Of a stretch of DNA of 64,000 nt, positions 3,868-46,434 are shown in pieces (within the stretch, counting starts at the first letter, position 1; each line of letters starts with the position of its first letter). The translations under genes and the position numbers were made by a program. The stretch comes from a virus (lineage: Duplodnaviria; Heunggongvirae; Uroviricota; Caudoviricetes): IMG/VR virus record IMGVR_UViG_2799113057_000001; one strand, given 5' to 3'. Below the pieces are notes generated by a model that was not told the DNA's origin, ran no database searches, and saw only the letters and a program-made list of their open reading frames with translations.

Positions 3868-3886
3868 TTCTCTAAAACGGAGAATA
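3868..3886. promoter_or_regulatory. Operator-like palindrome copy 3 (TTCTCTAAAACGGAGAATA)
   Basis: Between divergent XRE paralog 2 and the eccB-like gene. Confidence 0.6.
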
Positions 3887-5768: not shown

Positions 5769-5788
5769 CCGCCAAGGAAGGAACACCC

Positions 5789-12326: not shown

Positions 12327-13118
12327 ATGACCGTTGTTATCGACAACCAGCTTTTCGTTCAAGGGCTCTCGGCGGCCAAGGTAATGGCGTACGCAGGCAA
12401 CGATGACCCCACGCATGCCGCCGTCGTACTGGGCTCCACGCGAGTCGAGACCGGCGAAGTCGGGACGCAGAACAGTTTGGCGTTCATCTCCTCGGACGGG
12501 AACAGTCCGGGGCAGGCGATCTTCGGCTGTGACGGAACGCTGCCTCTGGTGAAGTTCTCGACCGATCAGGCTTCCCAGTTGCTGTCGGCAGCCAAGAATG
12601 CGGCGTCGGCCGTCAAGAAGGTCGACAAGGAATCCCAGTGTGATGTCGAGTTGTCGGTCGTCGACAACGGCTCCACGCTACTCATGCGCACACTCACCGA
12701 CGGAGCCCCGGGAGAAGCCGACTCGCGGCACTACATCCCGTTGCAAGACGTCGACGACTTCCCGATCGCATCGACGATCTCTCGACTGTCGGCCCGCGGC
12801 GCCAAGGAAATTCTGAGCACGCGCGGTCTTGGTGACGACCAGACGACGGCACCGCTGAAGGTCGGCAAGGTTCAGGCGTTCGGCTCGGACGTGATCAAGA
12901 AGATGAGCGCCATCGCCGCGGTGTTCAAGGAACCTGTCGAGCTTTACACCCGTGAGCATCCCGCATCGATCGTCACGCTCACATGCGCCGGCGTCTTTCG
13001 AGCCGTGCTGTCGGCACACACCTACCACCCGGATCTGGACGTTGATGATCCGGAAGTGCCCGTCGCCGTTTCGCTCGGAGGAGACGAGGATGACGACGAG
13101 GGCCACGATGCCGCATGA
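12327..13118 (+). CDS. hypothetical protein
   Basis: Internal ATG with the upstream purine-rich stretch GGGAAAGGGCGACGGG. Acidic C-terminal tail. Confidence 0.45.
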   Translation: MTVVIDNQLFVQGLSAAKVMAYAGNDDPTHAAVVLGSTRVETGEVGTQNSLAFISSDGNSPGQAIFGCDGTLPLVKFSTDQASQLLSAAKNAASAVKKVDKESQCDVELSVVDNGSTLLMRTLTDGAPGEADSRHYIPLQDVDDFPIASTISRLSARGAKEILSTRGLGDDQTTAPLKVGKVQAFGSDVIKKMSAIAAVFKEPVELYTREHPASIVTLTCAGVFRAVLSAHTYHPDLDVDDPEVPVAVSLGGDEDDDEGHDAA

Positions 13119-13164
13119 TCAGGGTTGAATGTGTCGTCACGCCCCCAGGTCGAAGGAGGATCAG

Positions 13165-13611
13165 GTGAGCTTCACTGTTGAGACCGGCGACCTGTTCGTC
13201 CACCCCGCGGAGGCACTAGCTCATGGAGTGAACTGCCAAGGTGTCGCGGGGGCGGGTGTGGCCGCGATCATGAAACAGCGCTATCCAAACGCGATCTATC
13301 AGTACGAGGTGATCGCGCGGCGCGGCGACCTGCCGGCGGGCGGCGCCATGATCTGCTCCGGTGGCCCGGGCGACCGACCCATCATCCACTGCGCCAGCCA
13401 GTACTACCCAGGCCCCGACGCCCGCGAGGAGTGGGTGCGATCGTCGGTGGCCGTGGGCCTGAGTCTCGCCGTCGAGCACGGGATCGGTTCTGTCGCGCTC
13501 CCACTGATCGGCGGTGGTATCGGCGGACTCGATCCAGCAGTGGCCGAGCAGATTATTCGGGAAGTCGCAGAGGCTTCGCCGGTCGCTGTGACGCTGGTTC
13601 TGTTCGGCTGA
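13165..13611 (+). CDS. Macro domain protein (ADP-ribose binding/processing)
   Basis: Motifs HGVNCQGVAGAGVAAI, IHCASQYYPG and ALPLIGGGIGGL. GTG start after the RBS GAAGGAGGA. Confidence 0.75.
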   Translation: MSFTVETGDLFVHPAEALAHGVNCQGVAGAGVAAIMKQRYPNAIYQYEVIARRGDLPAGGAMICSGGPGDRPIIHCASQYYPGPDAREEWVRSSVAVGLSLAVEHGIGSVALPLIGGGIGGLDPAVAEQIIREVAEASPVAVTLVLFG

Positions 13612-13620
13612 ACACCTGAG

Positions 13621-13663
13621 CCCTACACCACTTACGTACAAAATGTACGAAAGTGGTGTAGGG
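13621..13663. other. Perfect 13-bp stem hairpin with a palindromic loop, 8 nt upstream of the next start codon
   Basis: CCCTACACCACTT-(ACGTACAAAATGTACGA)-AAGTGGTGTAGGG. Confidence 0.45.
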
Positions 13664-13671
13664 TCTCTGGT

Positions 13672-14559
13672 ATGACGAACGACTACGAGTTCTTCGCCTA
13701 TGACGGGGGACAGCTCACAGCAGCTGCGATAGAGATATTCGCCTACCCGATGGGTGATCTGACGGTGCGCTCCGTCGATGGGGCAGATCTCGTCCCGGGT
13801 GTGCAGGTGCTCTGGGTGCACACCGCGGCGCCGGACTGGACCGTCGTGTTCAACTGGGCAGCTCTGACAGCGGCGTACCCGCACCGAATCTTGGTGATGC
13901 CGTTCCTGCCCAGCGCCCGCGGCGACAAAGACACGCCCTGCCCGGCGCACACCAACGCGCGCTTGGCCGCGCTATCAGGAATCACCGGCATCATCACCAT
14001 CGACCCGCACTCGCCGGTGTGGCTGGACACGCTGCGCGCGGTCAACCCCACGGTCGCAGTACATGTCATCGACATGTCCGACGTGGTGGCTGCGGCGGTT
14101 GACGCTGGCGACTACCTCGGGGTGATCGGTCCGGATGCCGGCTCGCTGCGGCGCGCGAGCACAGTCGCCGCGCAGCTAGAGCTGCCGGTGTCGGTGGCCG
14201 ACAAGAAGCGCGATCGCGCCACCGGACAACTTCTGGGCTACAACGCCCCCGCTGAGGTGAAGGATCGACCGGGCCGGTACTTGGTGGTCGATGACATCTG
14301 CGACGGCGGTGGAACGTTCGCGCTGCTGGCTCAGGGGCTGGGTGCCGGCTTCGAGCTTGATCTGTGGATCACCCACGGCGGGTTCACCAAGGGCACCGAC
14401 GTCTTGATTGACAACTACCGGAGCATCCACACCACCGACTCGTTGCGCTCGGCAGTAGCGGCCGCTGTGACATCACCTGAGGGCGCGGCGGTACAGATCC
14501 ACCCACTTGGCCGCTACGTGCTCGACGGCCTGCACAACATCAGCGAGGAACCGAAATGA
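13672..14559 (+). CDS. Ribose-phosphate pyrophosphokinase (Prs)-like enzyme; candidate ADP-ribose pyrophosphokinase (Adps-like)
   Basis: PRPP-binding motif [13 protein letters not shown] and a Prs-like [10 protein letters not shown] region. Confidence 0.75.
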
Positions 14560-14966
14560 CTCAGAATTTTTCTGCCATCGAATGGCCGACCAACGGCACT
14601 CTGCTTGAGCGACAAGCCATCTTCATCTATGAGGCCGCGCGGCTACAGGCCGCCGCAGTGAACGCACCCGTCGTACCGGAGCCATGGTCGGCGCGCGAGG
14701 AGCATTTCCGGGCGCAGTTCCTGGAAATCACCGAGAAGATGATGGGCCCCGACCGGTATACGACGCCTGAACAGGCCCACGACAGCTGGTGGCGCGCGTA
14801 CGAGCAGTTGGGGTGGACATACGGCCCCGTGCGCGATGTAGCCGCGATGACACATCCGGACATGGTCCCGTTCAACGAACTCGGCTGGGAAGAACGTGTG
14901 AAAGACGCCGTGTGGATCGCGCTATGCGAGATCGCCCGTCAATGGATCGCGGAGGACGAGCGATGA
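14556..14966 (+). CDS. RyR (ryanodine-receptor) domain protein
   Basis: Matches the RyR domain core (GWTYGPVRD...[18 protein letters not shown]). ATGA coupling on both sides. Confidence 0.55.
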
Positions 14967-16537
14967 ACACACAGGCCACGACTGCCGACAACACCAACAC
15001 CCCGGGGGAACCGATGAAGGACAATCAGAACCGTGCGCTGGACACTCTGCTAGCCACCGATGCCTACAAGCTCGACCACCGGCGCCAGTACCCGGACGGC
15101 ACCGAGTTCGTGTACTCCAACCTCACCGCGCGCGGCACGCGGGTGCCAGGTATTAATGCGACGGTGTTCTTCGGTCTGCAGGCATATCTGCAGCGGCTGA
15201 TCGAAGACTGGCAGGTGTTCTTCGACCTGTCCGCCGACGAACTCGAACCGGTGCTGGCCGGATATGAGCGGTTTGTTACCGCGCTTTTGGGACCGAACAC
15301 GGTTGGCGTTCAGCACTTCCGCGACCTACACACGTTGGGCTACCTGCCACTGCGTGTGCGGGCGGTGCGGGAAGGATCGCTAGTACCTTTGCGGGTTCCG
15401 TATCTAACCGTGGAGAACACCGATCCCCGGTTCTTCTGGCTGACCAACTACTTCGAGACGCAGTTGTCGGCTGAGCTGTGGCAGCCGATCACCAGTGCCA
15501 CCATCGCCTGGAACAACCGCAAGCTGCTCGACGAGCGCGCTGCTGAGTCTGGCGATGAAGCCGCGGTGCAGTTCCAGGGCCATGACTTCTCCTACCGGGG
15601 CATGGCTGGAGACGCAGCGGCGGCCGCATCAGGTGCGGGCCACCTGATCAGCTTCACGGGCACCGACGGATTGCCCGCGATCCGGTTCATCGAACGGTTC
15701 TATCCCGGCAACGGCGACGCCTTGATCGGCGCATCAGTTCCGGCGACCGAGCACTCGGTGATGTGCGCCGGCGGACAAGACGGCGAGCTGGCGACCTTTG
15801 ATCGGCTGCTGAGCCTGTATCCCGAAGGAATCCTGTCGGTCGTTTCGGACACCTGGGATCTGTGGCGCGTACTCACCGAGTACCTGCCCGCGCGCAAGGA
15901 ACAGATCATAGCCCGCGACGGAAAGCTGGTGATCCGCCCCGACAGTGGCGATCCCGAGTTGATCCTGTGCGGAGATCCAGCTGCGCCCGAAGGCAGTCCG
16001 GCTCGCAAGGGCGTGGTGAATCTGCTGGCCGAGACGTTCGGCACCATCACCAACGCCAAGGGCTACCGCGAACTGAACCCGCATGTCGGTGCGATCTATG
16101 GGGACTCGATCACCTTTGAGCGAGCCGACGCGATCACACGGAACCTGATGGCGCAGGGGTACGCCTCCACCGCTGTGGTTTTCGGGTTCGGTTCCTACAC
16201 CTACCAGTACCAAACACGCGACGTTTTCAAGCTGGCCGTCAAGGCGACATGGGTTCAGATCGACGGTGTCGGCCGGGACATCCTCAAAGACCCGGTCACC
16301 GATGACGGATCTAAGAAGTCGGCTACCGGACGATTGGCGGTGCGACGCGCGATGAGTGGCGAGCCGTACTTGATCGAGCATGCCGATGCCGATCAGGAAG
16401 CCGACAACGAATTGAAGCTGGTGTTCGAGGACGGAAAGCTGTTGCGGCAATACAGCTTCACCGAAGTGCGCGAAACGTTGACCCGTGAGACCGGTGTCTA
16501 TCAGCGTTACAGCCGCGCGAGGAGGCAGCAGTCATGA
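14963..16537 (+). CDS. Nicotinamide phosphoribosyltransferase-like enzyme (NAMPT/NadV/Namat family)
   Basis: N-terminal [16 protein letters not shown] matches the NAMPT signature. About 524 aa. Confidence 0.85.
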
Positions 16538-17187
16538 GATCGATGACCGAATCGAACCTGGCCGTGAGCCCCGACGATCATCCGGTGCACGGTACTTGGC
16601 TCAGCGTGGATGTCGTTGCCCTCACCGATGACCCCGAGCCGAAGATCGTGTTGATCGAACGCGCCGGTGCACCGCACAAAGGCGAAATCACCTTGCCTGG
16701 TGGGCTGCTGGCCGCCTGGGAGGGGGAGACCGTCGAGCAGTGCGCGCAGCGCATCGTGCGGAACAAAGCCGGCACTGAGTTGACCGGCGGCATCGCTGTC
16801 GTCGACGTCGTCAGCGACCCGGGGCGCGACGAACGCGGGCACACCGTATCGATCGTCGTGGTGGCCCGTGTCCCCGCTGAGGTCAGGGGCGCTGTGCCAG
16901 TGACCCAGATACCGGAGGCAATGCCATTCGGCCACACGGGGATCGCAAGGTCGGCCATCTTACGCCTGGGGGAGCGCCTGCTGGTCGACCCGGACACCAC
17001 ACACGCCATGCTCGGCGACGAGACCACACTCGCCCAAGTTCGCGCGTTGCTCGGTGTCTGCGGCCCGACAACCGCGGGCGCAGCCCGCAAGCGCCTGGAC
17101 CGCTCACCGCTATACCGCCGAACCGAGGAGCTGCGTAAGCCAGCGCCAACCGGCCGGCCAGGGCACGTATACCGATTCCTGGTGTAG
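16534..17187 (+). CDS. NUDIX hydrolase
   Basis: Nudix box GX5EX7REUXEEXGU (LPGGLLAAWEGETVEQCAQRIVRNKAGTEL). Confidence 0.8.
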   Translation: MRSMTESNLAVSPDDHPVHGTWLSVDVVALTDDPEPKIVLIERAGAPHKGEITLPGGLLAAWEGETVEQCAQRIVRNKAGTELTGGIAVVDVVSDPGRDERGHTVSIVVVARVPAEVRGAVPVTQIPEAMPFGHTGIARSAILRLGERLLVDPDTTHAMLGDETTLAQVRALLGVCGPTTAGAARKRLDRSPLYRRTEELRKPAPTGRPGHVYRFLV

Positions 17188-17590
17188 GTGCCGCGCCGGG
17201 CAAGGCTACGGTCGCCGATGCGCATAGACGGCGCACGTGTCACCTGCGACCAAACCGCAACGGCTGCAGAAGCTTCACCAGTTGTATGAGCTGACTTTGT
17301 CTGATCCTGAAACGGCGCACAGCCAGGCCGATGACCACCGCGTGCGTTACGTCAACGACCCCTACATCACAGCGGTCTTCGCGCGGTCTAAGGGGCATTA
17401 CTGAAGCCGCGACACGCCGAGAAAACCGGCATTTGCCGTCTCAGTTGCTTGTCGGTCATGGGGTGTAAATAGTTAGGCAGTCGGCACGGATGCATGCATC
17501 TTCGACAGGTAGGGAAGCCCGTCGACGATGCATCCACACCGGCATAGATCAGCAACAGCAACTCAACAGCACCAGAAAAGAGGCACTACC

Positions 17591-19329: not shown

Positions 19330-19349
19330 ATTCTCCGTTTTAGAGAAAT
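19330..19349. promoter_or_regulatory. Operator-like palindrome copy 4 (ATTCTCCGTTTTAGAGAAAT)
   Basis: Consensus match immediately upstream of the 19358.. membrane-protein operon. Confidence 0.6.
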
Positions 19350-27030: not shown

Positions 27031-27053
27031 ATATTCTCTAAAATAGAGAATAT
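27031..27053. promoter_or_regulatory. Operator-like palindrome copy 5 (ATATTCTCTAAAATAGAGAATAT, perfect)
   Basis: 23-bp perfect palindrome between the whiA-like 1 stop and the 27016 start. Confidence 0.65.
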
Positions 27054-27072: not shown

Positions 27073-28026
27073 CTATCGAGCGGCGGCATTGTCGGAAACT
27101 GCTGTCGAGTCCCTCGCGCGCTCTTCGGCGCGCTGCAGCAGGCGCCAGATTCGGCCGGCGTAGGCGTCCTTGGTGATCGGTGGATCGGCTTTGGCTGCAA
27201 GCTCGTTCATTCGGGCTTCCGGGTTCTCCAGGCGTAGTCGCGCCGCCTCGGCCAGCTGTGGTGGCACGTCATCGCCGAGGATTCGGAGCGCACGCCCCAC
27301 CGATTCGGCTTGGTCGTGTGCCGCCTGGATGAACCTGGATCTGTTGGCAGCCTCGAGGTTCTCGACGCGCATCGATTCGCGGTGCGTGCTAATGAGGGTG
27401 TGCGCAGCTTCGGGTGCTCCCACGGCTATGAGGAATCTGCCTATCTCCGGGGTCTTGCGAATCTCGAATACGTCGACAGATACTCCGTCGCGGGTGTATT
27501 CGCGCATCTGACTCTGTACTCCGTGGCGGCGGGCGAACCCACCGAGTGCCATCGCCGCAGGGGCAGTCGGGCACACAACCTCGAGGCGCGGTCGTCGGAG
27601 CTCGTGGGTGATGATCTGTCCGCGTGCCAAGAACGCACCGCGAAGTGCGGCTGCCGCGTCAGCGCGTGTGCCTGCCACGACCGCCGGCGACATACCCAGT
27701 ACCGGCCGGCCCGATGGGCTTAGCAGGCCCACCTGCGCCGCTAGGTTGTGGGCGCGATGTATCTGGCGCACCTTGAAGGTTCCCGCCGATAGCTCGAACG
27801 CGCGCGGCGCCGCGTCGAAGAGCTTGGTGATCTCGTCGCGCAAGAACACCGCGGCTTCGCGCGTATCGAGCTCGACGTCGATCCAGCAGCGGCGGCCCTC
27901 GCTGAAAAACCCGCCGCCGAAGCGCAGCATCGCTGAGACCTGCGCACGTCTGGTCGAAGGCGTGTCGTTGACGGACGGAAGTACACGATTCAGTTCGTAT
28001 TTGACCTGTTGTGTCAGTGGATTCAC
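27073..28026 (-). CDS. whiA: WhiA-like DNA-binding protein (divergent paralog 1)
   Basis: C-terminal PPITKDAYAGRIWRLL and overall WhiA-like layout. Confidence 0.7.
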   Translation of the reverse strand: MNPLTQQVKYELNRVLPSVNDTPSTRRAQVSAMLRFGGGFFSEGRRCWIDVELDTREAAVFLRDEITKLFDAAPRAFELSAGTFKVRQIHRAHNLAAQVGLLSPSGRPVLGMSPAVVAGTRADAAAALRGAFLARGQIITHELRRPRLEVVCPTAPAAMALGGFARRHGVQSQMREYTRDGVSVDVFEIRKTPEIGRFLIAVGAPEAAHTLISTHRESMRVENLEAANRSRFIQAAHDQAESVGRALRILGDDVPPQLAEAARLRLENPEARMNELAAKADPPITKDAYAGRIWRLLQRAEERARDSTAVSDNAAAR

Positions 28027-28035
28027 CGGATACTC

Positions 28036-28332
28036 CTATCCCTGATCCGTGGTGTGGCTGGGAACGTCGACGAGAACCGGCACGTATGGGAGGGACACGC
28101 CGGCGAGGTACTGCCGAAACTCCAAGACAGCAGCGCGGTCCTCCGGCGTCAGCGAAGTGCCCGGCGCCGTCAATGTGCAGGACGCCGCATCGGCTGCGTA
28201 GCTCGGATCAGCCTGCGCGGGATCAGACGTCCACCCCCACTGGTCGAAGTCAAACCCTTTGGGGCGCACTGGGCGGTACCAGGTGTTTCCGTTGGCGTCG
28301 GTGCGCGCTGGGTACTGCTGGGCGATGCTCAT
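28036..28332 (-). CDS. hypothetical protein
   Basis: Internal Met. ATGA coupling with the upstream gene. Confidence 0.4.
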   Translation of the reverse strand: MSIAQQYPARTDANGNTWYRPVRPKGFDFDQWGWTSDPAQADPSYAADAASCTLTAPGTSLTPEDRAAVLEFRQYLAGVSLPYVPVLVDVPSHTTDQG

Positions 28333-28778
28333 GTCAGCTGACTCCGCCAACGCCACCCGTTGAACCACCCGCGGCAGTCGTTGCACTCCACCCCGCACCG
28401 CATATTGACCATCCACAGATGCGTGCAGGTTGGGTCGGCGTCGCACAGTTGTTGCTGATTCTCGCCAGGGCCGTAGCGCCTCGAAGCGAATACCTCACCG
28501 CCGCAGTTTCGAAGACTTTCCTTCAGAGGAGGGAAGCCGGGCCCGAGTTTGGGTGGCAACGGAAGCCAGATTGGGGCCAAACCCATACTTTTGGCCCAAT
28601 CGATGATGTTTTCTGTCGCCCAGCGTTCGCGCATCTGATGGAGATTCAAGCTGGCGTTCCACTCCGGGATATGCCCGGCGATCACGTCGAGTTCGAGTTG
28701 CCATTGGTAAGCACGCAGGAACGCGGCCCGTGCGTAGGCCATGCGAGCTGAATCATGCGGTGCCATGGCGATGTTCAT
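28329..28778 (-). CDS. Trp/Cys-rich hypothetical protein
   Basis: 149 aa (…CTHLWMVNMRCGVECNDCRGWFNGWRW). ATGA coupling at both ends. Confidence 0.45.
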   Translation of the reverse strand: MNIAMAPHDSARMAYARAAFLRAYQWQLELDVIAGHIPEWNASLNLHQMRERWATENIIDWAKSMGLAPIWLPLPPKLGPGFPPLKESLRNCGGEVFASRRYGPGENQQQLCDADPTCTHLWMVNMRCGVECNDCRGWFNGWRWRSQLT

Positions 28779-29089
28779 TGGAAGTCGCCTCCTTCGCCTC
28801 CCATGCCGCCGGCGCCCAGGCAAGGCTCGTCGCCGCTGGTGTGGGCCGCCATCACCCAGAACGTCCCGCCGTACCAGGCCTCCGCGCGACGTCGGCACCA
28901 TGAGCAGGTGGCAAAGCCCTGCGGGTAATGCGAAAGGTGCCAGTGCCCCGCGTCGTCGGGGCACTTGTATGGGTGGAGCGTCTGGAAAGTGCGGCCCGCG
29001 GATTCCACTGTCGCGCGGATATCCTGGGCGCCTGCCTGGGCGAGTTCGCGTGTCAGAAACAGGTGCTTCGTCGCGTATCGGCAGCTCAT
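28775..29089 (-). CDS. Cys/His-rich small protein (possible metal-binding)
   Basis: HPYKCPDDAGHWHLSHYPQGFATCSWC. ATGA coupling. Confidence 0.4.
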   Translation of the reverse strand: MSCRYATKHLFLTRELAQAGAQDIRATVESAGRTFQTLHPYKCPDDAGHWHLSHYPQGFATCSWCRRRAEAWYGGTFWVMAAHTSGDEPCLGAGGMGGEGGDFQ

Positions 29090-29424
29090 CGAGTCTCGCC
29101 CTTCGCGCATTCGGGGTAGTGCTCGTCCCGTGAGCAAGCCTCGTATTCCTCGAGGCTAACCTCACGCCAGCCGATCTCTTTCCCGTTGTCCAATCTCAGG
29201 CGCCAAGATTCCGAGTGGGGGATCCACTGTGGCGGCGTGCCGGGATATGTGTTGCAGCGTGGCGGGCTCCCACTACATGTCGTTGATCCCGGGGTGCCCG
29301 GCACGTACTGGGTCCACGCGGGGCTGTACTCGGTGTCTACGACCTTTCCTTCAGCGGGGCCATTGCCGCAGGCGGTGAGCGCACAAACCAACGCGATAGC
29401 AATGGGCCATCTTCGTGGACTCAT
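29086..29424 (-). CDS. small lipoprotein
   Basis: Lipobox ALTAC after a signal peptide. Cys-rich mature part. Confidence 0.5.
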   Translation of the reverse strand: MSPRRWPIAIALVCALTACGNGPAEGKVVDTEYSPAWTQYVPGTPGSTTCSGSPPRCNTYPGTPPQWIPHSESWRLRLDNGKEIGWREVSLEEYEACSRDEHYPECAKGETR

Positions 29425-29690
29425 CGATTCACCACCTCGGCGATAAGGTCGTCGATCCATGGCTCCCGAGGGTCACGATCGCGATCCCATTCCCACTTGT
29501 CGAGCCAGCCGAAATGCGGTGTTCCGTTGAACAGTCGATTTCCGGAAATACTGACGATCACGACTTCTGCGTCCTGATCGCGCTGAACGTTCACCGTGTG
29601 CGGCCGAAACAAGGTCTCTGGCGCATGCCGCGGGCTCATATCAGGCAACTTGAAAGGTGGAATGTTATGGGATTCCCAGTCACTCAACAT
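29421..29690 (-). CDS. hypothetical protein
   Basis: 89-aa ORF. ATGA coupling. Confidence 0.4.
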   Translation of the reverse strand: MLSDWESHNIPPFKLPDMSPRHAPETLFRPHTVNVQRDQDAEVVIVSISGNRLFNGTPHFGWLDKWEWDRDRDPREPWIDDLIAEVVNR

Positions 29691-29922
29691 GCTTAGTCTC
29701 CTGTGCTTTCTCGGTTGGGGGCTGGTCGAACGTCCACAGCTCGATCCGGCCGTGCTGCCAGAACAACTCACCGGCATTGCCCGCCCAGTTGAGGTCCATC
29801 TCCCAGGCGAGCTCAATCCAGATGGGAGTGTCCAGGGCTTGGCGAATGTCGCTACACCGATGTTCTTGGCAGTCCACGTGATTGCGGCCATCAGGGCAGG
29901 TGCACACATCGGTGGTATCCAT
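29680..29922 (-). CDS. Cys-rich small protein
   Basis: CTCPDGRNHVDCQEHRC. Starts 3 nt after the whiA-like 2 stop. Confidence 0.4.
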   Translation of the reverse strand: MDTTDVCTCPDGRNHVDCQEHRCSDIRQALDTPIWIELAWEMDLNWAGNAGELFWQHGRIELWTFDQPPTEKAQETKHVE

Positions 29923-29925
29923 GGA

Positions 29926-30957
29926 TTACGCACCTGCCAGGAGTCGGACGGCCCCACCGTCGGGGCGCTCTGAATCGAACTCGTCCTGCTCTTCTCCGGC
30001 GGCGCGGCGGTCGGCCATGATGAGCAACCGCCGCAACCGGCCTGCGACAGCGTCTTTGGTGATGGGCGGCTGGGCGAGCTGCCCAAGCTCTTCCAGAGAT
30101 GCCTCGCGGTGATCCAGGCGAAGCTGTCCGGTGTGCACCAGGTGCTCGGGTGCTTCTGCCCCCAAAATCGCTAGTGCCTGCTTCACCTTGGCCGCCGTGG
30201 CTGCCGCTGCTCGTGCTGATCTACGCGCGTTGGCGTCATCGAGGTTGACCAGCCGGATTGCGGTCGACTGCATTGCGCGCTGAGCGATTCGCCTCTCCCA
30301 GGAGATGCGCGACTCGTCTGCACCGATTCGGGTCAAGAGCGTTCCGATGCTGTCATGGTCGTGAATCACGACACGGTCGATGCCACGAGCCGTGCGCACC
30401 ATCGACTGAACACCCAGCCGGCGCGCGCAGCTGGTCAGCGCGAATGCCACTTCGGGGTTGGGGCAGCTGATCTCCAGCGCGCTGGATCGGCTCGGTCCGA
30501 TCAATGATCCAGCGACCATGAAGGCGCCGCGCCAGGCTGCGGCGACCTCGCCCGGTGATCCGCCGACCACCATCGCGGGTAGCCCGGTGACGGGCCGGCC
30601 GCGCAGGTCGATGAGACCAGTCTGTAGGGCGAGATCACGCCCACCTTCGCTCACGCGCACCGTGTAACGGGCACCACGGCGCAATCCGGTTTCGCTGTTC
30701 ACGATCACTACTGCTTTGTGGCCATACAGCGCTGCGATTTCCCGGCGCAGGTACCGCGCGACGGCACCGGTGCCGACCTCGATGTGCACCGTCAGCCCGG
30801 TACGGGAGACACGAAGCTCACCAGCGAGTCGGACGATAGCTGCGACCTGAACACGCCTGCACCCCTGGTGTATTGATGTGGCGCGACTCAACTCGTCACG
30901 CACTTCCTGCGTCATCGACATCGGTCCTCCTCCTGCGTTTCGTGGTCGGTCTGTCAA
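29926..30957 (-). CDS. whiA: WhiA-like DNA-binding protein (paralog 2, closer to canonical WhiA)
   Basis: LAGLIDADG-derived N-terminal region plus the C-terminal HTH motif PPITKDAVAGRLRRLL. Confidence 0.8.
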   Translation of the reverse strand: MTDRPRNAGGGPMSMTQEVRDELSRATSIHQGCRRVQVAAIVRLAGELRVSRTGLTVHIEVGTGAVARYLRREIAALYGHKAVVIVNSETGLRRGARYTVRVSEGGRDLALQTGLIDLRGRPVTGLPAMVVGGSPGEVAAAWRGAFMVAGSLIGPSRSSALEISCPNPEVAFALTSCARRLGVQSMVRTARGIDRVVIHDHDSIGTLLTRIGADESRISWERRIAQRAMQSTAIRLVNLDDANARRSARAAAATAAKVKQALAILGAEAPEHLVHTGQLRLDHREASLEELGQLAQPPITKDAVAGRLRRLLIMADRRAAGEEQDEFDSERPDGGAVRLLAGA

Positions 30958-32927
30958 GCTGCGGTTTCAACGGCGCCGGGGCGCTGGAAGGCCGGGAGCC
31001 ACTTCTCGGCTTGGGCAAGTGCGATCAGGTCGCTGAGGTCACGGCGGTCGAGCTGGCCGGCGTCGGGGACTCCCAATTGCGACGCGAAGTCGATCTGCGC
31101 ATCGGAGGACTTAGCGCGGGGGAGATCACGCATGTGATCGGGAAAGATATTCTGCGCCAGCGCGTCTGCCTCTGCCAGGCTCAGCCCTTGCAGGTAGCAC
31201 CTGGGGCCCGGTTCGGTCCACTGCCCATCGAGGCCGACCCAGAACATGCGGTGCACCGTGCTGTCGAAGAATCCGAAGGCCCAATCACGGCCCGCGACGG
31301 TCCCCGTGACACCACGCATATCGGCGAGCATCAGTACGCCTTTGTGGCCGTTGGCGCGGTACACCGAGCGCACGAGGCCGCGGGGGTGGTGTACCCAGCG
31401 GATGGTGGAGGTGCGCTGCGACCAGCTGGAGTCGCCTCGCCGCTGTTTTCCGGCGGCTAGGACGTCGCCGGTAACCGGATCGAAAGTCCGCAGCGGATCT
31501 ACTCGGTGCAGGTCGCATTCACAACCGCAACGGCAGAGTCCGAAGGTCAGCGTGCATGTGCATGTGCAGGGGACACTGGACACGGGGTCGCTGGCTGGGC
31601 CTGACTCAGACGACTCGTTCGCACACGTGCAGTTGCATTCACAACCTATTCCCGTGCAGGAGAAGTCGCACTCGTCACTTGTGCAGGGCTGCTGGCAGAA
31701 GCAACCGAACCCGTCTTCGTCGCTCTCCGGTTTCTCGCGGTGTTCGGGGTCCAGGCGGGTCTTGACGATCAGCCCGAGAGATCCGGCGCCCACGAGGTCC
31801 ACGACGAGAGCGGTGTCTTTGACGGTTCCGTCTTCGAAGGTGTGTGGCCGGAGAGCGCGCCCTACACATTGGACAAGCCTGGACTGGCTGCGCGTCGGTC
31901 TGGCCAGCACGACCGCTTCGCAGCGAGGGAAGTCTGCTCCCTCAGTGAGCACGTCGACCGTCACCAGCACCTGGGTGCTCCCGTGTCGGAATCGGTTGTA
32001 AATGCCGTTACGGACGCGGGTTTTGGTCTCTCCGACGACCACTTCGGCGGACACGCCTTGTTCGACAAGGGACTTGGCTAGTTGCTCGCAGTGCAACAAC
32101 GAAGCGCCAAAGACGATGGACGAGCGGCCCTCGGTGCGTGTCAACACCGCCTCGACAGTGGCGTTTAGCGTGGTCTCTCGCATCATCGCCTCTTCGGCGA
32201 CCTCGTCGGAGATGTCTCCGCCACTACCGGAGGACAGCTTCGAGACATCAAGTTCCGGGAGTTCAACGGTCACGCCTTCTGGCGCGATCAAGAAGCCGTT
32301 TTCGATGGCCCAGTTGATGTCCCGCTCGAAAACCACCTCTTCCCAGATGGTCCTCAAGGCGGGCTCGTCCCTGCTCGGGGCGTGGCGGATCATCGTCGCG
32401 GTGAATCCGGCACGGCGCGCGCCCAGAGCAGTGAAGTGGTCGAGCACCTTGCGGTAGGTTCGGGCGGGCGCGTGGTGGGCCTCGTCGACGATGACGAGGT
32501 CGCGGTGTCCGATTCTGGCTAGGGCCGCCTCAGTCTGTAGTGATTGCACTGTGGCCGAGACAATCTGAGCAGTTGGGTCATCGCGATTGCCTCCTCCGAT
32601 CAGCGAGGGGACGGGGCCGGCCGGGTTCACCGCTGAGACGGCAATGGCCATCTGCTTGATCAATTCGTCGCGGTGGGCCATCAGCAGCACCCGGCCGCTG
32701 TTGGTCACCTCACGGCGCGCCAGCTCTGCGATGACGGTCGATTTTCCCGTCCCGGTCGGCAGCACGACCGCCGGTCCCACGACGCCACGGTTGTAGGCAG
32801 CGCATACCGCGTCGGCGGCTTCGATCTGATACTCGCGCAGTGCACGTGGCTCGTTGGTTGCAGGGGCTGCGACAGGGAAAGCCATCTGCTCTTGATCTGC
32901 GGCGGGAGCCAAGTCGGTGACTGTCAT
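30954..32927 (-). CDS. SF2 DEAD/DEAH-box helicase with a Cys-rich insertion
   Basis: Walker A LPTGTGKS, Walker B DEAHH. A roughly 90-aa block holds more than 20 Cys residues in CxC arrays. Confidence 0.8.
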   Translation of the reverse strand: MTVTDLAPAADQEQMAFPVAAPATNEPRALREYQIEAADAVCAAYNRGVVGPAVVLPTGTGKSTVIAELARREVTNSGRVLLMAHRDELIKQMAIAVSAVNPAGPVPSLIGGGNRDDPTAQIVSATVQSLQTEAALARIGHRDLVIVDEAHHAPARTYRKVLDHFTALGARRAGFTATMIRHAPSRDEPALRTIWEEVVFERDINWAIENGFLIAPEGVTVELPELDVSKLSSGSGGDISDEVAEEAMMRETTLNATVEAVLTRTEGRSSIVFGASLLHCEQLAKSLVEQGVSAEVVVGETKTRVRNGIYNRFRHGSTQVLVTVDVLTEGADFPRCEAVVLARPTRSQSRLVQCVGRALRPHTFEDGTVKDTALVVDLVGAGSLGLIVKTRLDPEHREKPESDEDGFGCFCQQPCTSDECDFSCTGIGCECNCTCANESSESGPASDPVSSVPCTCTCTLTFGLCRCGCECDLHRVDPLRTFDPVTGDVLAAGKQRRGDSSWSQRTSTIRWVHHPRGLVRSVYRANGHKGVLMLADMRGVTGTVAGRDWAFGFFDSTVHRMFWVGLDGQWTEPGPRCYLQGLSLAEADALAQNIFPDHMRDLPRAKSSDAQIDFASQLGVPDAGQLDRRDLSDLIALAQAEKWLPAFQRPGAVETAA

Positions 32928-33694
32928 GCAGCGCCTCGCTGTTCGGCGATCGCGGCGCCGAGCGTGAGAACGAAGTCACCGCCAGTGACGTACAGCCCGT
33001 CAGCTGCGGCCACCGTGATTCCGCGGCAAGCCTGATCGGGAACCTGCTCGAACGAAACGATTTCGCGGCGTAGTTCGTCGTCGCGCCCCCACAACGGCAC
33101 GAGGCTGTATCCGGCTCCGTGCCGAACCCATGTGGGCAGTCCGCCAAGCGAACGGATCAGAGAGCCGGCGGCGGCCAGCGCCATGGAGGGAGCCGACGCC
33201 CCGATGCTGGACCGCGTGCCCAGTACACCGGCGAGCGTTTCGCGCCGCTGTGAGACGTCCGCGGTGAGGTACCGCCAAAGAAGGCCTGCGTCAGTAGCCT
33301 CGCCGCTGCGCAGTTCGGACCCGAAGGTTAGGGGGTCGACCGGGAGAGCAGCGGCCTCCGGGAACGCAACGGCTGCCGCAGTCGGGATCGTCCAACGCGG
33401 TGCACCTCCCGGCAGCACCAGATTGGCGCAGATATCAGCGGTGCGATAGATGCCGATCGCGCCGGTGGCGCCGTCACGAGCCTGCCACAGAGTTTCCGCG
33501 GCTACGTCGGTCTTGGCGCCGTCATCGAAATGCAGACGCGCCATCGAAACGGATCCGATGTCGTTGACGGCAAGAACCGGTATCGGGGTTCCATCGGAAC
33601 CAAACACCGTGTCGCCGGGGACGAGATCGTCCAGCCGACGGAATCCGTCAGGGGTCGGTATCGCCGTGTCGAGCGGCTGTGCGTGAGTGTTCAC
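32924..33694 (-). CDS. stand-alone Hint-domain (intein/BIL-like) protein
   Basis: N-terminal IPTPDGFRRLDDLVPGDTVFGSDGTPIPVL resembles Hint block A/B. ATGA coupling to the helicase. Confidence 0.45.
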   Translation of the reverse strand: MNTHAQPLDTAIPTPDGFRRLDDLVPGDTVFGSDGTPIPVLAVNDIGSVSMARLHFDDGAKTDVAAETLWQARDGATGAIGIYRTADICANLVLPGGAPRWTIPTAAAVAFPEAAALPVDPLTFGSELRSGEATDAGLLWRYLTADVSQRRETLAGVLGTRSSIGASAPSMALAAAGSLIRSLGGLPTWVRHGAGYSLVPLWGRDDELRREIVSFEQVPDQACRGITVAAADGLYVTGGDFVLTLGAAIAEQRGAA

Positions 33695-35689: not shown

Positions 35690-36139
35690 TCAGGTGTAGC
35701 TGAGGTTCAGCGTTGGCGCGGCGACGGAGACCAGCTCGGCGTACACATCGGGGTAGCGCTCCTCGAACAGGTCGTACTTGACCGAGCGCGCCCCTGCCTT
35801 CTGAGTGACCGTGAATCCGTCGTAGACGCCAGGGGTGTTGGCCACGGCGGTGAGCAGCGCAACACGGACCGCCTTCAAGGCCTTCGCGCATCGGCTGTTG
35901 ACGGAGCTCAGAATCTGGCCCTGTCGCGTCGCCGTGGCTGCCCGCATGGACACCTGCAGGACCAGGTGTGCGAGTTCGGCAGCGGGGTCAGCCGACGCCT
36001 CGATGAACGCCACGATTTCGTCTGTCGACAGAGTCGATGTGGCACCTGTCGGGGCAGGCGCTTGTGGTGCGAGCAGGCCCGCGGGGGCAACCCCGTGTAA
36101 AGGCGGAGCCGTGGGTACTAACGGCGGTGAAGCGGTCAT
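35690..36139 (-). CDS. hypothetical protein
   Basis: Internal Met with RBS GAGGAGA. 149 aa. Confidence 0.4.
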   Translation of the reverse strand: MTASPPLVPTAPPLHGVAPAGLLAPQAPAPTGATSTLSTDEIVAFIEASADPAAELAHLVLQVSMRAATATRQGQILSSVNSRCAKALKAVRVALLTAVANTPGVYDGFTVTQKAGARSVKYDLFEERYPDVYAELVSVAAPTLNLSYT

Positions 36140-36674
36140 GAGTGCGGTCTCCTCGAAGTGGTCGGTCCGAGTGACGAGGATGTCCGGCATCCGGAGGAGA
36201 TGAATCGAATTTGCGAATCATCCACGTTTCCATCACCGGCAATTGCCGTCGTCTCGGTGAGCGTAATGCCGGTTGTGATGCCTACGCAACACCTGTTCTG
36301 TTTCTGCGTGTCGTTGTACGCCTGGGGTCTGACAAGTGGGCACTATCCCGCCCTCAGCCTGGGGAAATGTGCGGGGAAGTCAGTGGGGAGTGAATGGGCG
36401 GGCGCGTGGCTAGTTGCCGGTTGTTGCCTGTCACGTCCCCCCAGGGCATTGCGCGAAAGTAAGTTTCGGCAGGTTGGTCGACGGGTTCCCGTCAAACTCG
36501 CGCCAGGCCTCCAACTATGTCTGGCTACCCGGCATCGACTCACAGCCCGCCCGCCAGCCCCGGCTCTCCGCCGGTTGGCGTGATTCTGTTCGTCGTGGTG
36601 TGTAACTTTCCCTGTTGACCTGCGGTTTCTGCCAACAGGGCGTGCACTTGTTGGCCTACCTGCGTGTTTGTGTT

Positions 36675-36885
36675 GATGCCTTGTAAGTGGGGGGTGCCTC
36701 GGAGACCCCCTCGGCGTGCACATGTACACACACTTTCTGACCGGCTTTGCCTCACGTAACGGGTAAAACAAATAATTAGCTAAACTAATTACATATATCT
36801 ACCTGGGGTTTCTTTATAGGCCTACCGTGTGGGCAATTTTATGAAGTCAGAGCCGCGCCGAGGCACCCCCCATCTACAAGGCATC
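36675..36885. repeat. 28-bp inverted repeat (2 mismatches) flanking a 155-bp spacer with a strongly AT-rich core; candidate origin
   Basis: Left arm 36675..36702 and right arm 36858..36885. AT-rich tract at about 36764..36800. Sits inside a 1-kb non-coding gap immediately upstream of the DNA polymerase gene. Confidence 0.5.
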
Positions 36886-37165
36886 TGCGTAAAACTGCTG
36901 GTAGGCCGAGAAGTGCGCGCCATTTTGACCATTTACGCAGTTCAACGCGGCGAGAAACCGTGCACACCGAACGATTCGCGCCGCGAAAAGGTGTGCACAT
37001 CGCAGAGGCGGAAATGTGCAGCAGTGGCGAGCGGGGGCTGGTGTCGGCGAGATCAGCATTGGCGATATTTCGATGTAGAGATCAGGCGAATGGGCAATAT
37101 GCCTATTTCGATGCCACCTATCGGCGTGTCGGCAACTAGATGGCAATGATGTCGGCATCGAATGC

Positions 37166-39961
37166 TTGACTGGCCGCGTGTCCGATGAGCCCAACGTGCC
37201 AGTGGTCGATCTGCCGCGTGTCAACGCGGTCGAGTTCCAGTTCTATGACCACACGGTCGGGGCGCATCTAGTTACCGCTGACAAACAGATGGCGAGGTGG
37301 ATCGACGAGCTTCGGTCGGCACCGCCAGCCGCAGTGGCCGTCGACATCGAGACCCATGGTCTTGACGTCAACAAGTTCACCATCACGTGTGTCACCGTGG
37401 CCTTCGAACTCGGTCAAGACATGGTGGCGCTGTTGTTCGATCCTCTGCGCCGCGCTGAACACCGCGGGATGCTGGCCCGGGTCTTCGACCACGCGGACCG
37501 CCTGGTCTTCCACGGCGCCAGCTTCGACATCGCCCCGCTGTACGCCCACAGGCTCATGACGAAGGCGCATATTCGCAAGCTCGGCGACACGCTGGTCGCC
37601 GCGCGGATGGTGGGGACCAACGCCAAGGCCGGCCGCACGCTCGAAGACCTCGCGAACGTGTTCCGCGTGATGGACGACGATCGCACGTCGATGACCGAAG
37701 TGTTCTCCGCTCGAGGACTTAAGAAGGACGACGGTTGGCGGGGAACTGATATCGACACTCCGACCTATGTAGTGGGTGCGTTGTCCGACACCGTCGCGAC
37801 AAAGCGCCTTTGGGGTGTCCCGGGCGTTAACGGACACGGCATCATGGCCAAGGCCGCTCGCTACCTGACGGCCCCGTCAGCGGGTTTCGGCGGCCATGGT
37901 GTTCTCACAGCCACTGACGCTGAAGCACTCGTCGAGGACATCCAGCGCGTCAACGCGATAGTGCTGGAACGGACGGCACGCGGATACGCGGTCGACAAAG
38001 AGTTCCCCCAGCGTTTCCTTGAAGAGACTGCTGAGCAGACGCGGGCTGCCGCAACGACTCTCGCTGAGGCGGGAATCCGCCCGGGCAATGCCGCTGACCT
38101 GGTCAACACCCTCGATGCCCGCGGTCTGCTGCACCAGCAATGGCCGCGTACCGACACAGGCCGCCTGAAAGCCGATAAGAAGGCATTGGAGGTCTTCACC
38201 GGCGAGCACATCAGTGACGCGCTGAAGAACCCGCTGGTGATGGCGCACCGTGCTGTTTTCGACAACGAGAAGGACCGCGGCTATGTCGAGAAGGTGGTCG
38301 AAAATGCAGGGCCCACAGGGCGCCTACATCCAGAAATCAAGATTTTGGGCGCCAGCGCCACCGGCCGCATGTGCCTGCCCGAGAATCAGCGGCTGCTGAC
38401 CCGCCGGGGCATCGTGTCTGTGAACGAGATCCGGACCGGCGATCGAACCCTGGATGCAGACGGGCGCTGGACGACGGTGCTGGAGGTGCACCGATACAGC
38501 GATGCGCCGCTTCGCCGTTACACACTCGATGACGGAATCGAACTGATTTGCACACCCGAGCACCGCTGGGTTACCGAGAACACCGCCGGTAAACGCAAGG
38601 TTCAGTCTCTTGACCGTGCCCGGCAATCCGACCATCTGCGTCTCACGCCGCCTATTACTCCCGGGGTCTGCGGAGGCGGGAACTCCATGACCGCTCCGCA
38701 GCACGACGCGTACACCATCGGGCGTGTCACTGTTCAGCTTGCGCGACAACGCACCGGCGAGTTGTCCGATGCTCTATGCGGTCCAGCCGAGACGCGGCGC
38801 GCGACGGTGACTAGCCTGCGTGAGCGCTGGCAGACCGAAGGTGAAACCTGCTGGGTACCCGAGCATGCGCCACGAGACACCGCGCTGCACTCGGTGTGCG
38901 ACAAGTCTCTCGATGAGCTTTGGAACATGCTGGAGGGTGCGAGCCACTACGCGACAAACGCCAGTCACGCTGGTGTCACCGTGCTGCCTACACCCAATAG
39001 GCGCTACGCCGAGGCTTTCGCGCTGGCGGGATATCGCCTCGGTCTGCGATCCCTGATCTTTGACGCACCCGCAGGGGCTGCCGTCGTGCTACATCGAGGG
39101 CGCTCCGGCCTGGCCAACATGGTTGTGAGTGATGCCGGAGAAGGCGATGTGTGGTGTGTGACAACTGATTCGGGCACATTCACCGCATGGGGCGAACATG
39201 GCCCGTACCTGACGGGCAACAGTGCGAGCAAGCCGGAGATTCAACAGTTTCCCAAACGGGCACGAGGAGTCATCGTCGCTGATTCAGACGCCGAGGGCTG
39301 GATTTCGGCGGACTGGAAATCGATCGAACCCGTGGTGCTGGCGACTGCGTCCGGAGACAGGCAGTTCATCGCCGACATGCGCGCCGGCATGGATCCGTAC
39401 GAGCCGGTGGGGCAAGCGGCCGGTATTGATCGCAAGCTTGCCAAGCGAAAGATGCTTGCGGATATGTACGGGCAGGGACTCAAAGCCGCTTCGCTGCAAT
39501 ACGGTTGGTCACTGGATCAAGCTCGGTTCGTTCAGAACACGATCCGCGGATCGCTGCCGATTCTGTACAAGCTGATCGACGCACTCAAGGCGCAGTCGCA
39601 ACGATTCGGGCACGTGACCACGCTTACCGGCAGGGTGGTCGATCAGAAATTCAGCTTCTACGAGGGTGGACGTCTGGTGAGCGATGTGGCACAACGCATT
39701 GCGCCCAACCACTTCTGCCAAGGCTCGGCGCTGGACATCATGCACTACGCGATTCTCGAATTGGATCGCCGCGGGCTATCTGATCACGTCCATCTGTGGA
39801 TGCACGACGAGATCGTGGCGGACAAGGAGATTGCCGAGGAACTGGCCGAAGTCATGGCCACGCCGCCCCCGTTCCTGGAAGCGGTGGCGCAGTACCACGG
39901 TATCGAGGCGTTCTTGGCCGTCGACGTGAACGAGATGGGCAGCCGATGGGAGTACGTGTGA
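37166..39961 (+). CDS. polA: Family-A DNA polymerase (PolA-like, 3'-5' exo + polymerase) interrupted by an intein
   Basis: Exo motifs (VDIETHGL). Pol motifs B ([14 protein letters not shown]) and C (LWMHDEIV). Confidence 0.85.
38372..39220 (+). other. Intein (283 aa) within the polA-like gene
   Basis: The host motif [15 protein letters not shown] (cf. TGRLSSSDPNLQNIP) is split by the insert. Insert begins with Cys ([15 protein letters not shown]) and ends LTGN, with a TxxH block (TPEHRW) and C-terminal blocks. Confidence 0.7.
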
Positions 39962-45606: not shown

Positions 45607-46434
45607 TCAGTAGCCGACGCCGTGGCCGACGCCGCGCGCCATGAAGGTGACCAAACCGGTGCCGGTGTGCAGATCAACGTGGTAGCGCACGGCGATGTAG
45701 CGCCATGCCGCGGCGATATTGGCCACCGGGTCGTAGATGAACGTGGAGGTGCCTGGGGCATGATTGGCTGCGAAAGTCCCTGGGACAGTCTGCATGAGGC
45801 CGCGCGAGCTTCCAGCTGGTGCGCCGTCAGGCTGCCGGGCGCCCCAGGCGTTGGAATCTCCGCGGTTCACGGCGTTGGTTGCGCCGCCGGATTCCCCGCC
45901 CATGATCGTGCGTGTGGCGGTGTCGAATTGCCCAAATAGCCGTGGGTTTACGCCGGCGGCCTGCAACCCGGCCGAGATGTCCGCATCGGTGACATGGGGG
46001 ACAGGGTGTGCGGTGTAGATGATCTTGGACTTATCGATCGCGGCTGCCTCGGTGACAGGCCTGGTCGAAGCAACCGGCACGAGCACCAGGGGACGTGACG
46101 GAGCAGCGCCGGGTATCGGTTCCTCTACCGTGATCGATTCTTCGTCGCGTGCTGCATCCTCGACTGACGGTGCTTCGTCGACAGGTTCGGCGGCGGCCTC
46201 TTCGTCTGTCGCCTCGATGACCGGCTCAGGCGCTGACTCTTCGTCGACGAGATGGTGCTCGACAATCGGTTCGGTTGCCTGTTCGGTGCCGCAATCCGGC
46301 ATATCGCAGGTGATTGTCGCCACATCTGAAGTCGGATCCGATGCGGGGTCAGCATGCGCGACGCCGCCTCCGATCGCAGCGATTGCCGCCGCGGCGACTA
46401 TCGCCGACAGAACTGGACGCTTACCTGTGGACAT
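45607..46434 (-). CDS. secreted lytic transglycosylase (SLT domain)
   Basis: Signal peptide. C-terminal SSRGLMQTVPGTF...YDPVANIAAAWRYI matches the SLT catalytic region. Confidence 0.7.
   Translation of the reverse strand: MSTGKRPVLSAIVAAAAIAAIGGGVAHADPASDPTSDVATITCDMPDCGTEQATEPIVEHHLVDEESAPEPVIEATDEEAAAEPVDEAPSVEDAARDEESITVEEPIPGAAPSRPLVLVPVASTRPVTEAAAIDKSKIIYTAHPVPHVTDADISAGLQAAGVNPRLFGQFDTATRTIMGGESGGATNAVNRGDSNAWGARQPDGAPAGSSRGLMQTVPGTFAANHAPGTSTFIYDPVANIAAAWRYIAVRYHVDLHTGTGLVTFMARGVGHGVGY

Follow-up and report, generated by a model that had tools for sequence, protein, structure and literature searches.

The stretch of DNA analysed here (64,000 nucleotides, hereafter the window; IMG/VR record IMGVR_UViG_2799113057_000001), whose host, going by the source names of its closest homologues, is Mycobacteroides abscessus, carries on its minus strand two genes for WhiA proteins, separated by a cassette of six short open reading frames (ORFs). 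The gene lying first in the direction of transcription, WhiA1 (29926..30921; 331 aa), encodes a host-like WhiA paralogue with a near-intact helix-turn-helix (HTH), and the one lying last, WhiA2 (27073..28026; 317 aa), a divergent paralogue with a remodelled DNA clamp. A first-pass annotation had placed eight genes here, chained by ATGA or near-ATGA overlaps. This description stands, the successive spacings from WhiA1 to WhiA2 being +3, -11, -4, -4, -4, -4 and +9 nt (four ATGA overlaps and one 11-nt overlap), with two corrections: the last small ORF encodes 98 and not 99 aa, and the start of WhiA1 moves to the ATG at 30921. The longest possible WhiA1 ORF (29926-30957) opens with a TTG overlapping the stop codon of the helicase gene; the ATG is favoured by the public gene calls on identical contigs and by a strong GGAGGAGGA Shine-Dalgarno sequence. 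Both flanking proteins are WhiA, as had been proposed: each matched the three Pfam domains PF10298, PF14527 and PF02650, which make up the WhiA architecture of two LAGLIDADG-like domains and a C-terminal HTH, above their gathering scores, as well as the NCBIfam equivalog TIGR00647 from end to end (268 bits for WhiA1 and 140 bits for WhiA2, with a cut-off of 44).

WhiA1 aligned without a gap with chain I of 8DY9 (phmmer E 4e-98), which is a match of sequence, a fold having been predicted for WhiA2 only. In order to compare DNA-contacting positions, we mapped on both proteins the residues that had been mutated in a study of Streptomyces venezuelae WhiA (PMC10243135), whose numbering is used throughout. 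WhiA1 retains R174, R177, R181, R221, L222, N229, R266, L274, K287, R293 and R295, and R185H and F225L are the only changes among the mutagenesis-tested residues; of the 29 HTH positions at which chromosomal WhiAs hardly vary, 27 are likewise kept. Altogether, 32 of 130 near-invariant WhiA positions are broken in WhiA1, and 48 of 130 in WhiA2. The best chromosomal WhiAs of named Mycobacteriales share 58-61% identity with WhiA1, and the chromosomal WhiA of M. abscessus is not named among the best 120 matches listed for it.

For WhiA2, an earlier AlphaFold2 (AF2) model built from an alignment of 8 sequences was poor (predicted local distance difference test, pLDDT, of 61), and the modelling was therefore repeated with 43 sequences, which gave a pLDDT of 91.2. 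This model supports the first-pass suggestion that the divergent protein folds as a WhiA, its top Foldseek matches being 8dy9_I (E 2e-22) and 8dy7_I (template-modelling score, TM, 0.88; root-mean-square deviation, rmsd, 2.3 A), both S. venezuelae WhiA, and 3hyi, the WhiA of T. maritima; LAGLIDADG endonucleases, including I-DmoI and intein endonucleases, came lower in the list. Its DNA-reading surface is altered at several points. WhiA2 harbors the substitutions R177V, R181V, L222V, L274M and R295W, so that two of the four backbone-contacting arginines of the N-terminal domain are lost, and its long helix has a 3-residue deletion and many changes, with 14 of 33 conserved positions retained. R174, R185, R266, K287 and R293 are kept, together with 22 of the 29 conserved HTH positions. 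R295W occurs in all M. abscessus copies of WhiA2, the WhiA2-type proteins of Mycobacterium sp. D16Q14, Tsukamurella and M. conceptionense having Arg at this site. No WhiA outside its own family exceeds about 41-45% identity with WhiA2.

Relatives of the locus were found in several other records, which we refer to by their locus numbers where they have to be told apart. Both WhiA genes are present in every Mycobacteriaceae relative examined, namely in another M. abscessus lineage (L009; WhiA2 identity 75%), in Mycobacterium sp. D16Q14 (L011; 48%) and in two loci of Mycolicibacterium conceptionense type (L021 and L022; 39%), while a Tsukamurella tyrosinosolvens record (L018) has a WhiA2-like gene only (about 34-36% identity) within a backbone like that of the window, comprising an SLT-domain gene, large proteins, a family A DNA polymerase (PolA), an E3-binding-domain protein and a helicase. 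WhiA1 and WhiA2 share 36% identity with each other. In a neighbour-joining tree, WhiA1 forms with contig proteins a clade of 100% bootstrap that branches beside the chromosomal WhiAs of Mycobacteriales and Streptomyces; the WhiA2 clade (95% bootstrap) sits on a long branch and is weakly joined (47%) to the Tsukamurella element WhiA. Given the low identity and the separate, well-supported clades, the two are not recent duplicates. The ratio of nonsynonymous to synonymous substitution rates (dN/dS) of the two genes, 0.05-0.42, indicates purifying selection. Judged from these comparisons, the WhiA pair is an old, conserved and element-borne feature, and the cassette between its members is variable. 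A scan of species representatives with the family alignment as query recovered only Mycobacterium sp. D16Q14, and the same scan with WhiA2 alone gave no match. The first-pass remark that a WhiA pair on a mobile element is unusual was borne out: by tblastn, no cultured phage had a WhiA, the only matches being six 'Bacteriophage sp.' contigs from gut metagenomes, all unannotated, and a conserved WhiA peptide had no match among IMG/VR contigs.

WhiA-type boxes in the promoters of the element

The chromosomal WhiA of M. tuberculosis, which controls genes of division and of DNA replication, has an 8-bp consensus, GACACGCC, derived from chromatin immunoprecipitation sequencing (ChIP-seq) and IDAP-seq (PMC13473873). 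Taken as an a-priori pattern, this consensus was found 12 times in the window, against 5.9 +/- 2.5 copies expected, the plain pentamer GACAC not being enriched (166 against 188 expected). Four of the 12 copies are intergenic, intergenic DNA making up 8.3% of the window (binomial P=0.014). All four are exact copies of the 11-mer CGACACGCCGA, which occurs nowhere else in the window, with 0.16 copies expected and none of 100 shuffles reaching four. The first of these boxes lies upstream of the PolA gene (37121..37131, minus strand), 46 nt from the start codon, and contains GACACGCC; the second (48099..48109, minus strand) is placed 85 nt upstream of the first HA-domain helicase gene; the third (63506..63516, minus strand) sits between two divergent genes, 68 nt ahead of the start of a small gene; and the fourth (17410..17420, plus strand), conserved in L011, precedes a 216-aa gene by about 170 nt. 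A pair of GACACGCC copies around the WhiA2 start (27959 and 28094) is not conserved in L009 and was treated as chance.

The PolA box is the most telling of these sites. In a four-way alignment of the divergent region between PolA and the replication genes from the window, L009, L011 and L018, GACACGCCG is the only fully conserved 10-nt block near the PolA start, and the exact 11-mer is also present in the M. conceptionense-type locus L021. The distance from box to start codon is 46-47 nt in the window, L009, L018 and L021, that is, in four elements from three genera. In the same four, the PolA start codon is not preceded by any visible purine run resembling a Shine-Dalgarno sequence, which fits a leaderless transcript. 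On this inferred geometry, the site would fit a leaderless PolA promoter with the box centred near -50; in S. venezuelae, sepX is transcribed without a leader, and WhiA/WhiB promoters differ from one another in how the box is oriented and spaced (PMC10243135). The gene string with the two WhiAs is preceded by a variant box, CGACACGCAGA (36303..36313, minus strand). It is conserved in the window, L009 and L011, its GACACGC core is also found at the equivalent place in L021, and such a box would allow autoregulation of the string.

Since conserved WhiA-type boxes lie in promoters of its replication genes, the element probably runs a WhiA circuit of its own. In the reading that we prefer, and for which we regard the chances as evenly poised, WhiA1 is a box-binding activator of the replication and maintenance promoters of the element and WhiA2 a diverged modulator. 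WhiA1, with its GACAC-reading residues kept, would bind boxes containing GACACGCC at the PolA gene, the HA-helicase genes, other units and, through the variant box, its own gene string, and would activate transcription as chromosomal WhiA does, together with the host sigma-A and a host WhiB-like (Wbl) protein. The canonical mechanism would indeed require a host Wbl protein, as a search of the window and of six related loci for the four-Cys motif turned up no WhiB-like ORF. WhiA2, which retains the fold and K287 but has lost two backbone arginines and has a remodelled long helix and R295W, would modulate the same circuit, either as a competitor or as a factor of altered specificity. The six small genes would be co-expressed through translational coupling without being required partners. 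The regulatory role that the first-pass annotation had envisaged thus finds its support mainly at the promoters of the element itself, by way of the conserved boxes.

Several observations weigh against this reading. The boxes could be read by the host WhiA or by an unrelated protein of the element; the 8-mer is only modestly enriched, and the 11-mer was noticed after the fact; the variant box in front of the WhiA string is missing the final CC of the consensus; and scans with promoter and terminator consensus sequences detected nothing above chance, of which the promoter result is unfavourable here. In addition, the Tsukamurella relative possesses the PolA box but only a WhiA2-like protein, so that how WhiA1 and WhiA2 share the work can only be guessed. 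A more specific version, in which a conjugative tRNA-array element (see below) possesses a private WhiA circuit, WhiA1 recruiting the host sigma-A and WhiB2 to GACACGCC boxes and a re-specified WhiA2 antagonising or gating it, can be put forward only tentatively.

Rather than serving the element's own promoters, the pair might act mainly on those of the host, WhiA1 binding host sites and WhiA2 vying with the host's own, essential WhiA for WhiB2 or for RNA polymerase, with the outcome that septation or replication would be delayed or reprogrammed in favour of element replication or transfer. The near host-type HTH of WhiA1 (27 of 29 positions, including L274, K287 and R295) should recognise host GACACGCC sites, and WhiA2 has kept its fold and lost DNA-backbone contacts, as a dominant-negative protein might. 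Furthermore, whiA is reported to be essential in M. abscessus (PMC10470612), and the M. tuberculosis protein governs division and replication genes (PMC13473873). We nevertheless find such a take-over of the host unlikely, for the conserved boxes in its own promoters provide the pair with a sufficient local role, and, with the element stably present on many public contigs, strong interference with division would be costly. As an analogy for host take-over we offer the WhiB-like protein of phage TM4, which Rybniker et al. in 2010 reportedly found to act on WhiB2. The TM4 protein is likewise a homologue, on a mobile element, of an essential actinobacterial transcription factor for division, although it belongs to the Wbl family and not to WhiA, and the element described here is not a phage.

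Conversely, the boxes might be read by the host WhiA and WhiB2, which would couple the promoters of the element to the host cell cycle and leave the element WhiAs largely redundant or serving another purpose, such as DNA binding of a nucleoid or partition type on the element. The core of the box is the consensus of the chromosomal WhiA of M. tuberculosis (PMC13473873), and the Tsukamurella relative combines a PolA box with nothing but a divergent WhiA2-like gene. This is distinctly unlikely in view of the purifying selection on both element WhiAs, which are kept in every Mycobacteriaceae relative examined, and of the fact that, in all five relatives examined, a PolA-proximal box goes together with a WhiA gene.

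The cassette between the two WhiA genes

From WhiA1 towards WhiA2, the cassette, all on the minus strand, begins with s80 (29680..29922), a Cys-rich protein of 80 aa that matches phrog_6428 (1e-11) and no Pfam family, and s89 (29421..29690; 89 aa), which has an orthologue in L011 (80% identity, dN/dS 0.10). These are followed by s112 (29086..29424), the small lipoprotein recognised in the first-pass annotation, now given as 112 aa with the lipobox L-T-A-C, which matches phrog_4392 (1e-28), shows a dN/dS of 0.13 against L009 and has homologues in 74 mycobacteriophage records. The fourth, s104 (28775..29089), is a Cys/His-rich protein of 104 aa (phrog_10414, 2e-41; dN/dS 0.38) found in 39 mycobacteriophage records and 76% identical to gene 43 of the M. 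abscessus prophage prophi79-1. The Trp/Cys-rich s149 (28329..28778; 149 aa) has an orthologue in L009 (66% identity, dN/dS 0.25) and no family match in PHROG or Pfam. Finally, s98 (28036..28332; 98 aa) shares 82% identity with its L009 counterpart (dN/dS 0.15), and its N-terminal residues, about 58 in number, match phrog_3868, phrog_30020, phrog_7731 and phrog_466.

That these ORFs are coding, as had been assumed, is supported by a G+C content higher at third than at second codon positions (GC3 > GC2) in all six, by their being called, without exception, in the public gene calls on identical contigs, by orthologues in diverged elements for five of them (dN/dS 0.10-0.38), and by the phrog_6428 match for the sixth. 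The first-pass statement that they belong to no recognisable family stands for Pfam, NCBIfam and PADLOC, in which none of the six proteins found a match, and fails for PHROG, which four of the six ORFs match. Two of these four, s104 and s112, were compared with the phage collection, with the mycobacteriophage records given above as the outcome.

The composition of the cassette varies from one relative to the next. In L009 the space between the WhiA genes is occupied by genes of 112, 89, 104, 143 and 98 aa, of which the 89-aa gene is unrelated to s89 and takes its place, s80 being absent. In L011 the corresponding region consists of an uncalled stretch in which relatedness to s80 is visible, an 89-aa gene and a 170-aa protein into which the counterpart of s98 is fused. 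In the two M. conceptionense-type loci nothing lies between the WhiA genes, which overlap by 4 nt. The uncalled stretch of L011, 594 bp long (8633-9225) and running from WhiA1 to the 89-aa gene, contains by eye s80-like and HTH-like peptides, and would represent another cassette variant.

With a cassette that is variable among relatives and four of six ORFs in mycobacteriophage families of unknown function, an insertion, not a dedicated set of partners, is indicated; the most plausible view is that promiscuous ORFs of phage type, variable in their make-up, were inserted between WhiA genes that were ancestrally adjacent. The eight genes had initially been viewed as a possible module, and on a stricter view the six small proteins, the lipoprotein among them, would be obligate partners of WhiA, for instance as metal-binding cofactors. 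The tight translational coupling throughout and the Cys/His patterns conserved in the sequences of s104 and s149 are in line with this. It is, however, very improbable and largely refuted, as the cassette is different in every relative and absent in M. conceptionense, where the two WhiAs are directly adjacent, and as dozens of mycobacteriophages without a WhiA encode s104 and s112.

Gene string, intein relic and repeated motifs

The WhiA pair is the last conserved part of a leftward replication gene string. By gene calls, this string opens with a 166-aa ORF (35690..36190, minus strand) and continues with an E3-binding-domain protein, a 265-aa ORF, a Hint-like ORF, a helicase, WhiA1, the cassette and WhiA2, with spacings, from the 166-aa ORF down to WhiA2, that range from a 4-nt overlap to a 50-nt gap. 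It is divergent to the PolA gene (37178..39961, plus strand; Pfam DNA_pol_A and 3'-5' exonuclease). Directly upstream of WhiA1 is a DEAD/ResIII helicase of 657 aa (30954..32927, minus strand; Pfam ResIII and Helicase_C; phrog_16, 7.5e-82) that is syntenic in all relatives, and upstream of it, overlapping by 4 nt, a free-standing, intein-derived Hint-like ORF of 256 aa (32924..33694, minus strand; weak Hint_2 match), so that the unit does continue upstream through these two genes, as first described. Homologues of the Hint-like ORF are found within the helicase, at about residue 60, in L011 (4890-7583; 70% identity), L018 (17679-21403; 29%) and L021 (6338-9298; 33%). The helicase of the window has no such intein-like insertion, the Hint ORF standing alone just upstream, and L018 has a free-standing copy in addition to the insertion. 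At the first block the Hint ORF reads Pro where Cys/Ser would be expected, and the His-Asn at its end is gone, which makes it probably a splicing-dead intein relic.

The nearby relic, the N-terminal LAGLIDADG fold and the Foldseek matches to I-DmoI and intein endonucleases might recall active homing endonucleases spreading the locus, an explanation of practically negligible probability, since Ala (WhiA1) or Arg (WhiA2) stands in our alignment at the acidic site of the second LAGLIDADG helix (His135 in S. venezuelae), the first such helix ends in GG or GE in both proteins as in other WhiAs, and the full architecture with a C-terminal HTH is present; from this alignment, the catalytic acidic residues of LAGLIDADG homing endonucleases are lost in both WhiAs.

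A second repeated motif of the window is a 17-bp AT-rich palindrome, TTCTCTAAAATAGAGAA, with seven sites against 0.01 expected (2829-2845, 3868-3884, 19331-19347, 27034-27050, 55739-55755, 59703-59719 and 63552-63568). Most copies are followed on the gene map by a start codon at a distance of 13-19 nt, and the palindrome may serve a dimeric repressor as its operator or form an RNA hairpin associated with the start. The perfect copy at 27034..27050 fills the gap between the WhiA2 stop codon and a DUF7457 gene, and TTCTCTAAAATAGAGAA also follows the WhiA2-type gene in L009, L011, L021 and L018; WhiA2 is therefore conserved as the final gene ahead of a new start-associated signal. A single promoter region, at 63506-63568, holds both a WhiA-type box and the palindrome. 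A direct search further detected a 14-bp inverted repeat, GGGGGGTGCCTCGG / CCGAGGCACCCCCC (36689-36702 and 36858-36871, 155 bp apart), which flanks an AT-rich block (about 36765-36805) in the divergent region between PolA and the replication genes and is conserved in L009, L011 and partly in L018. Repeat and block together are a candidate replication origin or regulatory structure.

The carrying element among known systems

The locus belongs to what reads as a large, integrated, conjugative-plasmid-like element of more than 70 kb, and not as a phage. An identical locus is present on many public contigs and in the 5.18-Mb chromosome record CP062133.1, where the window corresponds to about 3.448-3.512 Mb in reversed orientation. 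No capsid, portal, terminase or tail family appeared among the Pfam matches listed for the window and for roughly 10 kb beyond either of its ends, and megablast gave no nucleotide match in 50,697 phage records or in the plasmid collection. The window encodes EccB and a 1425-aa EccC-like FtsK ATPase beside an XRE-type HTH gene (3972-10066), an HA-domain helicase and further FtsK/AAA ATPases, as well as an SLT-like protein (45607-46434) beside proteins of 744 and 456 aa that have no family. EccD, MycP, a relaxase and VirB4 were not recognised among the protein families of the window, EccB and EccC being all that was seen of an ESX locus. Taken together, EccB/EccC, the SLT-like protein and the family-less proteins suggest an atypical transfer apparatus of type VII/IV-like character.

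About 1.5 kb beyond position 1 of the window lies a tRNA array of 32 genes in L015 and L016 and 34 in L017 (L016, which is CP062133.1, 12092-20390; L017, 12092-20606). Within the window itself there is no tRNA gene, and Rfam gave no match. The 11-mer CGACACGCCGA also occurs between tRNA genes of the array (L016, 17103 and 18240). 'tRNA array unit' elements have been described from hundreds of M. abscessus genomes and from giant M. avium plasmids (PMC5966550, PMC12803027), and both M. abscessus and M. conceptionense are among the listed array carriers (PMC5966550). The 32-34 tRNA array beside the window therefore places the element in this group. With the described members (Morgado & Vicente 2018; M. 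avium giant linear plasmids, 2026) it shares the array, EccB and EccC, and it differs in that no full ESX locus was seen and that it lies within a chromosome record. Neither of the tRNA-array papers (PMC5966550, PMC12803027) mentions WhiA.

The WhiA of large plasmids from M. avium, M. intracellulare and JS623 provides a further comparison, these being extrachromosomal mycobacterial homologues with 39-49% identity to WhiA1. In contrast to the pair described here, one whiA is annotated in the two plasmid contexts examined, the neighbours are unrelated and there is no synteny with helicase or PolA; one plasmid record gave a second tblastn match. In the chromosome, whiA is found in a conserved housekeeping neighbourhood beside rapZ and yvcK. 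The element WhiAs resemble the chromosomal WhiA/WhiB systems (8DY7/8DY9; M. tuberculosis WhiA/WhiB2) in three-domain architecture and fold, in the DNA-contact residues kept by WhiA1 and in the GACAC(GCC) motif of the boxes (PMC10243135, PMC13473873). Unlike these, they are encoded on a mobile element, as two diverged copies in a replication gene string whose neighbours are a helicase, phage-type ORFs and DUF7457, and the parts of the element that were examined showed no WhiB gene.

WhiA itself, plasmid-annotated whiA genes and tRNA-array elements are already known. In our literature search, no paper was found on an element-encoded WhiA or on plasmid whiA genes. What appears to be undescribed is an anciently diverged WhiA pair within a replication string in elements of Mycobacteroides and Mycolicibacterium, the Tsukamurella relative having one copy, and the conserved WhiA-consensus boxes in the promoters of these elements. 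WhiA is an essential cell-cycle transcription factor of mycobacteria whose study outside Streptomyces is recent, and the diverged pair offers natural specificity variants (R295W, the loss of R177 and R181, the remodelled long helix) for examining how WhiA reads DNA and docks with WhiB and RNA polymerase. The pair also suggests how a large element that is clinically widespread in M. abscessus governs its replication genes, and the WhiA-type boxes and the start-associated palindrome supply a first candidate regulatory logic for tRNA-array elements, so far described mainly by their tRNA content. If the private WhiA circuit exists, no mobile element with a WhiA-based transcription programme of its own would have been described before, and here it would have element replication and transfer tied to an essential cell-cycle regulator of the host and possibly feeding back on it; if the element WhiAs touch the host regulon, carriage could alter the growth, division or drug tolerance of M. 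abscessus.

Three observations concern the remainder of the element. A cluster at 10935-17187 of the window comprises GmrSD_C, Macro, phosphoribosyltransferase, RyR-domain, NAMPT-like and NUDIX genes, which we take to resemble the NAD+ salvage and counter-defence gene sets of phages. One related locus, L020, is without the HA-helicase genes seen in the window. From about 59.7 kb (window about 59620-59730) onwards, the ORFs are offset by 7 bp relative to the CP062133.1 mapping (L019) and agree with L020, which indicates that the window comes from a slightly different strain.

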